This document shows, in pieces, positions 55,534 to 56,420 of a stretch of DNA of 64,000 nt (its first letter is position 1; each line of letters starts with the position of its first letter). This DNA comes from Escherichia coli (lineage in GTDB: Bacteria; Pseudomonadota; Gammaproteobacteria; Enterobacterales; Enterobacteriaceae). Location: NCBI RefSeq assembly GCF_003019035.1, contig NZ_CP027447.1, one strand, 5' to 3'. The notes below the pieces were generated by a model that worked only from the letters and a program-made list of their open reading frames with translations, ran no database searches and was not told the origin of the DNA. The translations under genes were made by a program, and so were the position numbers.

Positions 55534-56420
55534 TGGTTCGGCAAAATCTTCCAGAATGCCTCAATCAGCGGCTCATGTAGCCGCTTTTTCTGCACACACA
55601 CGCCCAGTTCAAACGGCGTTTTCTCATCACTGCGCTCTAAAATCATCACGCGGTTACGCACTGGTTCCGGGCTGTTTTCCAGCACCACTTCCGGCAACAA
55701 GGCCACGCCACAGCCGAGCGCTACCATCGACACCATCGCTTCATGCCCGCCGACCGTGGCGTAAATCATCGGGTTACTAATTTTGTTACGCCGAAACCAC
55801 AGTTCAATACGGCGGCGTACTGGCCCCTGATCGGCCATGATAAACGGTACCGTTGACCAGTCCGGCTTCTCTACCGAGACCTGATTACGCACCGGGCAGG
55901 GCAACGTGGGTGCGATCAGCACCACCGCCAGGTTCTCCAGCATCGAAAATGCCACTGCGCCGGGCAAGGTTTCCGGTTTACCCGCAATCGCCAGATCCGC
56001 TTCGCCAGTGACGACCTTTTCCATCGCATCTGCCGCATCACCAGTCGTGAGTTTAATCTCCACTGACGGATGTTCCGCGCGAAAGCGGTCGAGAATCGGC
56101 GGCAGATGGCTGTAGGCGGCGGTCACCGAGCAGAAAATATGCAGCTCGCCAGAGAGCGACGGTCCTTGCTGATCGATGGTGTGGCGCAGTTGCTGATACT
56201 GCAACAACGTTTGCTGGGCGAAAACACGCAGTTCTTCGCCTGCTTCCGTCAGTGTCACCGTGCGGTTATCGCGTATAAACAGCGGCTGACCGAGATCTTC
56301 TTCCAGGCGTTGAATCTGCCGTGAGAGCGTGGATGGGCTGACGTGCATCGCTCGTGCGCTGCGGCCAAAATGGCGGCTTTCCGCCAGATGCAGGAAGGTT
56401 TTCAGATCGCGTAAATCCAA
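55530..56420 (-). CDS. ilvY: LysR-family activator of ilvC
   Basis: ORF 55530..56558 trimmed to match IlvY (…[39 protein letters not shown]…); the codon at the expected start is TTG (56418..56420); start uncertain. Confidence 0.85.

Follow-up and report, generated by a model that had tools for sequence, protein, structure and literature searches.

The window analysed here is a 64,000-nt stretch of Escherichia coli DNA in which ilvY lies on the minus strand, convergent with ilvA and divergent from ilvC (Table 1). The ilvY product belongs to the IlvY family proper, with a full-length match above the curated cut-off of NCBIfam equivalog model NF008722 (513.2 bits, cut-off 246; residues 1-295 on profile positions 1-292 of 293). 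Its architecture is that of a LysR-type regulator, with an N-terminal HTH_1 domain (Pfam PF00126, residues 3-62, 81.6 bits) and a C-terminal LysR substrate-binding domain (LysR_substrate, PF03466, residues 89-293, 128.7 bits). The gene arrangement is also that of a LysR-type regulator, with ilvC divergent and a shared 149-bp intergenic region containing TTGCA-N5-TGCAA. Judging by the published two-operator scheme (PMC6483228), this repeat may correspond to IlvY operator O1 and the ilvY promoter region.

The minus-strand leader up to the ilvY start reads ...caacattGAGGGctgcgcca, and the start itself reads ...cattGAGGGctgcgcca TTG GAT TTA CGC GAT CTG AAA ACC. The codons after TTG specify D-L-R-D-L-K-T, the IlvY N-terminus, in agreement with the preliminary description, which had placed the start at this minus-strand TTG (56420..56418). 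That description had also noted that no in-frame ATG was nearby, which holds to a distance of about 70 nt: the closest are Met25, 72 nt downstream (56348..56346), and two upstream codons at distances of 84 nt (56504..56502) and 135 nt (56555..56553). Its remark that the upstream extension of the open reading frame would overlap the ilvC promoter region was accurate as well. The extension reaches a GTG at 56558; with the ATG of ilvC (56570) just 12 nt away, the long mechanical ORF spans the entire ilvY-ilvC control region.

Table 1. Positions of features at the ilvY locus of the window
Feature	Position	Strand	Evidence
ilvY initiation codon TTG (GTG in K-12)	56418..56420	-	annotated start; ATG/GTG/TTG in 96/96 species genomes; TG invariant
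Shine-Dalgarno (SD) motif GAGGG, 8 nt before TTG	56429..56433	-	sequence; positions -12/-11 conserved across species
SD-to-start spacer, hypervariable: ctgcgcca (K-12 ctgtccct)	56421..56428	-	K-12 comparison and species entropy
ilvY CDS, 296 aa, LysR-type activator of ilvC	55530..56420	-	NF008722 and Pfam matches
Conserved inverted repeat TTGCA-N5-TGCAA, 24-38 nt upstream of ilvY start	56444..56458	-	in essentially all species sequences
ilvY-ilvC divergent control region, 149 bp	56421..56569	.	length and layout as in K-12; without 3-nt periodicity in ilvY frame
ilvC (ketol-acid reductoisomerase), divergent target gene	56570..58045	+	ATG at 56570; annotation
Upstream in-frame TTG, rejected start	56433..56435	-	overlaps SD motif, without SD of its own; TCG in K-12 and two further E. 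coli genomes
Upstream in-frame ATG, rejected start	56502..56504	-	without SD; upstream region without coding periodicity; stops in relatives

The closest well-known counterpart is ilvY of K-12 MG1655 (b3773), the prototype LysR-type activator of ilvC. It shares the start position, the 149-bp divergent region and the SD core GAGGG with the window, and the two proteins are three substitutions and one C-terminal residue apart. K-12 differs in having GTG instead of TTG and in 4/8 spacer bases. At 93.3% nucleotide identity to K-12, ilvY (55533..56420) shows more divergence than is usual for a core gene of E. coli; identity is 96.4% in the adjoining ilvC and nearly complete over most of the control region. 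Introgression of a foreign allele was considered for the 6.7% divergence of ilvY and is unsupported, given that ilvC has diverged too; it is also disfavoured by the equal distance of E. albertii ilvY from the window and K-12 alleles.

At the other end of the gene, ilvA (plus strand) and ilvY converge at 55530..55533, where the palindrome TTAA contains the TAA stops of both genes, giving a 4-bp overlap of the coding sequences. K-12 MG1655 has a 58-bp insert after the ilvY stop that is missing from the window. The insert carries a terminator-like palindrome (GCCTGATAAGCG..CGCTATCAGGC, then a T-run), and K-12 IlvY has one extra residue (..PNHK) with this junction. Of 5426 complete E. coli genomes, 1134 have the junction without the insert. 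For ilvA-sense transcripts, a terminator-like hairpin is present at 55567..55585, inside the 3' coding region of ilvY. In addition, a second, diverged ilvY with a GTG start was detected on a plasmid of E. coli AH04 (NZ_CP081708.1, 304..1206; 85.7% identity across the aligned start region), with a dhaK gene and a partial, frameshifted ilvC as neighbours. Among E. coli records, seven such plasmid matches occurred.

Conservation of the start position

A degenerate pattern for the 12-residue IlvY N-terminus was scanned against one genome per bacterial species. It yielded 97 loci, all in Enterobacteriaceae-type records, 96 of which had enough flank for the start codon to be read. The codon before D-L-R-D-L-K was GTG in 59, ATG in 36 and TTG in one (E. 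albertii), and never a non-start codon. Given that 96/96 species genomes have ATG, GTG or TTG here, a start-type codon at this position is not due to chance. Other enteric genera have GTG or ATG.

Entropy was analysed in 94 distinct species sequences. Positions 2 and 3 of the start codon had zero entropy and position 1 had 1.04 bits. Spacer positions -1 to -8 were the most variable of the region (1.0-1.9 bits), and the two G's at -12/-11 were conserved (0.4-0.5 bits). By codon position, entropy was 0.13/0.00/1.07 downstream of the start, beyond the part constrained by the search pattern, and flat upstream (1.09/1.17/1.19). Three-nucleotide periodicity thus switches on exactly at the ilvY start codon. 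Sequence and comparative features expected of a genuine UUG start are present: an SD motif located 5-10 nt before an in-frame NTG codon (GAGGG, 8 nt, TTG), a start codon at the homologous position of relatives, and a coding signal that begins there. Comparative data could hardly make a stronger case for a start site.

Two observations concern individual records of this set. In E. albertii NBRC 107761, the 45-nt leader and the TTG match window positions 56420..56464 with one mismatch, and the ilvY coding sequence is only 89% identical. This likeness, in spite of a spacer that is otherwise hypervariable between species, suggests either that the two share an old haplotype or that recombination has occurred locally. 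Leaders and starts typical of enterobacterial ilvY were also found in a record titled Chryseobacterium sp. 18061 (L053) and in a metagenome-assembled genome named 'Proteobacteria bacterium' (L027); these are probably mislabelled or contaminated assemblies.

Start-codon alleles and annotation in E. coli

A 321-bp query around the ilvY start had matches in 5425 of 5426 complete E. coli genomes. Comparison with annotated starts, which the preliminary description had proposed as a check, agreed with its reading. In E. coli FDAARGOS_497, which is 100% identical over the query, the PGAP start of ilvY is the base matching window position 56420. In all of six more E. coli genomes, sampled across the identity range, ilvY is annotated at the homologous position, with TTG in five and GTG in one; SD variants among these six were TGAGGG, CGAGGG and TAAGGG. 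A literature search found no N-terminal or ribosome-profiling data for IlvY, and ilvY was absent from the supplements of the tetracycline-inhibited ribosome-profiling and N-terminomics papers (PMC4909307, PMC13245402).

Haplotypes were counted in the 5426 complete genomes with 30-mers that match by megablast only if the start-codon haplotype is exact. GCGCCA-TTG was found in 3358 genomes, GTCCCT-GTG (the K-12 type) in 1774 and GCGCCT-GTG in 74, with 220 unclassified. The start codon is therefore TTG in about 62% and GTG in about 34% (1848) of these genomes, which makes TTG the majority ilvY start in sequenced E. coli and the K-12 GTG the minority; because the complete-genome collection is a biased sample of isolates, these figures are genome counts and not population frequencies. 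Given that the reference strain K-12 has GTG, TTG is an allele and not a fixed feature of ilvY.

Alternative starts, a proposal that the TTG allele is impaired, and the evidence that decides among them can be considered together. An in-frame start-type codon, TTG 56435..56433, lies 15 nt upstream of the annotated TTG and recurs in E. albertii and in a small number of further sequences; initiation there would add five residues (M-R-A-A-P-L-D-L-R...). This codon, however, overlaps the SD motif, and no purine-rich motif lies 5' of it. Its position is occupied by TCG in K-12 and in two TTG-start E. coli genomes (L004 and L006), most species are without it, an in-frame stop occurs within 30 nt upstream of the ilvY start in 60/94 distinct sequences, and PGAP never chose it in the annotated E. 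coli genomes sampled. We consider the probability of this start very low, and the same holds for a much longer form that would extend IlvY by 28-46 residues across the ilvC promoter region, from an upstream ATG (56504 or 56555) or from GTG 56558. The frame is indeed open to 56558 in this strain, 138 nt upstream of the TTG, so that its sequence taken by itself would permit upstream starts, and the ATG 84 nt upstream recurs in some relatives, but none of the three codons has an SD motif 5' of it. The region upstream of the TTG shows no coding periodicity and has an in-frame stop within 84 nt in 70/94 species sequences, and both the IlvY family model and HTH_1 begin at residues 1-3 of the short form. 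Wek and Hatfield, in 1986, reportedly placed the start of the ilvY transcript a few tens of bases before the start codon and on the 3' side of the upstream ATGs; a consensus sigma-70 scan of 55400..56650 detected no promoter-like site. In addition, the upstream candidate codons fall in the region of the divergent promoters and the two IlvY operators (PMC6483228). The long ORF that crosses the ilvC promoter is artefactual, and ilvY is correctly annotated in its short form.

Another explanation accepts the position and supposes that the TTG allele is defective or strongly hypomorphic, with ilvY decaying or silent and translation, if any, starting from Met25. Among the three start codons UUG is the least favoured, and selection in general acts strongly against changes from AUG to UUG (PMC5622118). 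At ilvY, however, TTG is carried by the majority of genomes, and the TTG-allele gene is intact and scores 513 bits on the equivalog model. It differs from K-12 by 54 synonymous differences and 3 amino-acid replacements, and is thus under purifying selection and not decaying. Met25 cannot be the ilvY start because it lies inside the DNA-binding domain (HTH_1), within the helix-turn-helix; a product from Met25 would be without function. An impaired allele is therefore very improbable. Comparative evidence and annotation together identify, with high confidence, the minus-strand TTG at 56420..56418 as the true start of ilvY translation.

Start-codon strength and autoregulation

UUG is one of the three standard start codons of E. 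coli and is weaker than AUG. At ilvY, the GAGGG motif 8 nt upstream would position the 30S subunit at the TTG, and initiator fMet-tRNA would pair with UUG with a first-position mismatch, such that IlvY would begin with Met (M-D-L-R-D-L-K). AUG, GUG and UUG account for 83%, 14% and 3% of E. coli gene starts, respectively, and are the three strong start codons of this organism, with initiation at between 10 and 100% of that from AUG (bioRxiv 10.1101/063800). Other UUG-start genes of E. coli (about 3% of genes), such as cdsA, likewise combine an SD motif with a weak standard codon and an initiator tRNA giving N-terminal Met (bioRxiv 10.1101/063800; PMC11448367). Use of TTG by cdsA was tested by complementation (PMC11448367), whereas the literature search found no direct test of the ilvY start codon.

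Belinky, Rogozin and Koonin (2017) reported that ATG, GTG and TTG are swapped at a fixed position among relatives, as is also the case at ilvY; such switches are frequent between close relatives and under only weak selection, which is weakest in genes of low expression (PMC5622118). In the same study, a switch to a weaker codon was compensated by a stronger SD. We did not see this at ilvY. Anti-SD duplex energies across species averaged -6 to -7 kcal/mol, with no clear difference between start-codon classes (TTG -6.1, from one sequence; GTG -6.8; ATG -6.1 kcal/mol). Because the energy of the TTG sequence is within the range of the GTG and ATG classes, there is no evidence of SD compensation in these data. 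Contrary to the published trend (PMC5622118), one E. coli TTG haplotype even has a weaker-looking SD (TAAGGG). In addition, mRNA folding of five E. coli leader haplotypes, with an assumed 5' end, revealed no consistent difference between TTG and GTG in accessibility of the SD motif or start codon.

In K-12, IlvY binds operators O1 and O2, represses its own promoter and activates ilvC in an inducer-dependent manner (PMC6483228). A weak UUG may suit a low-abundance LysR-type regulator that represses its own promoter. UUG would be expected to lower IlvY synthesis compared with GUG or AUG, and we hypothesize that negative autoregulation buffers the difference, which would make the switch nearly neutral. 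Interchange of ATG, GTG and TTG at ilvY may thus be tolerated because IlvY autorepression may partly buffer initiation efficiency. It is conceivable, although we think it unlikely, that GTG/TTG at the ilvY start is an old Escherichia polymorphism linked to the hypervariable SD-to-start spacer, which might persist via autoregulatory buffering or might set lineage-specific IlvY levels and ilvC inducibility.

In summary, the weak non-ATG start of ilvY, which encodes an autoregulated LysR regulator of low abundance, was read correctly. It is an ordinary finding, because this TTG is already the annotated start and the commonest variant in E. coli; it is reflected in thousands of RefSeq annotations. 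Checking the ilvY start matters little beyond annotation accuracy, and the only added information is that the start codon is polymorphic within E. coli, with GTG in K-12, which is a minor curiosity. Nevertheless, the within-species GTG/TTG split represents a small natural experiment on the tolerance of an autoregulated regulator to start-codon strength.
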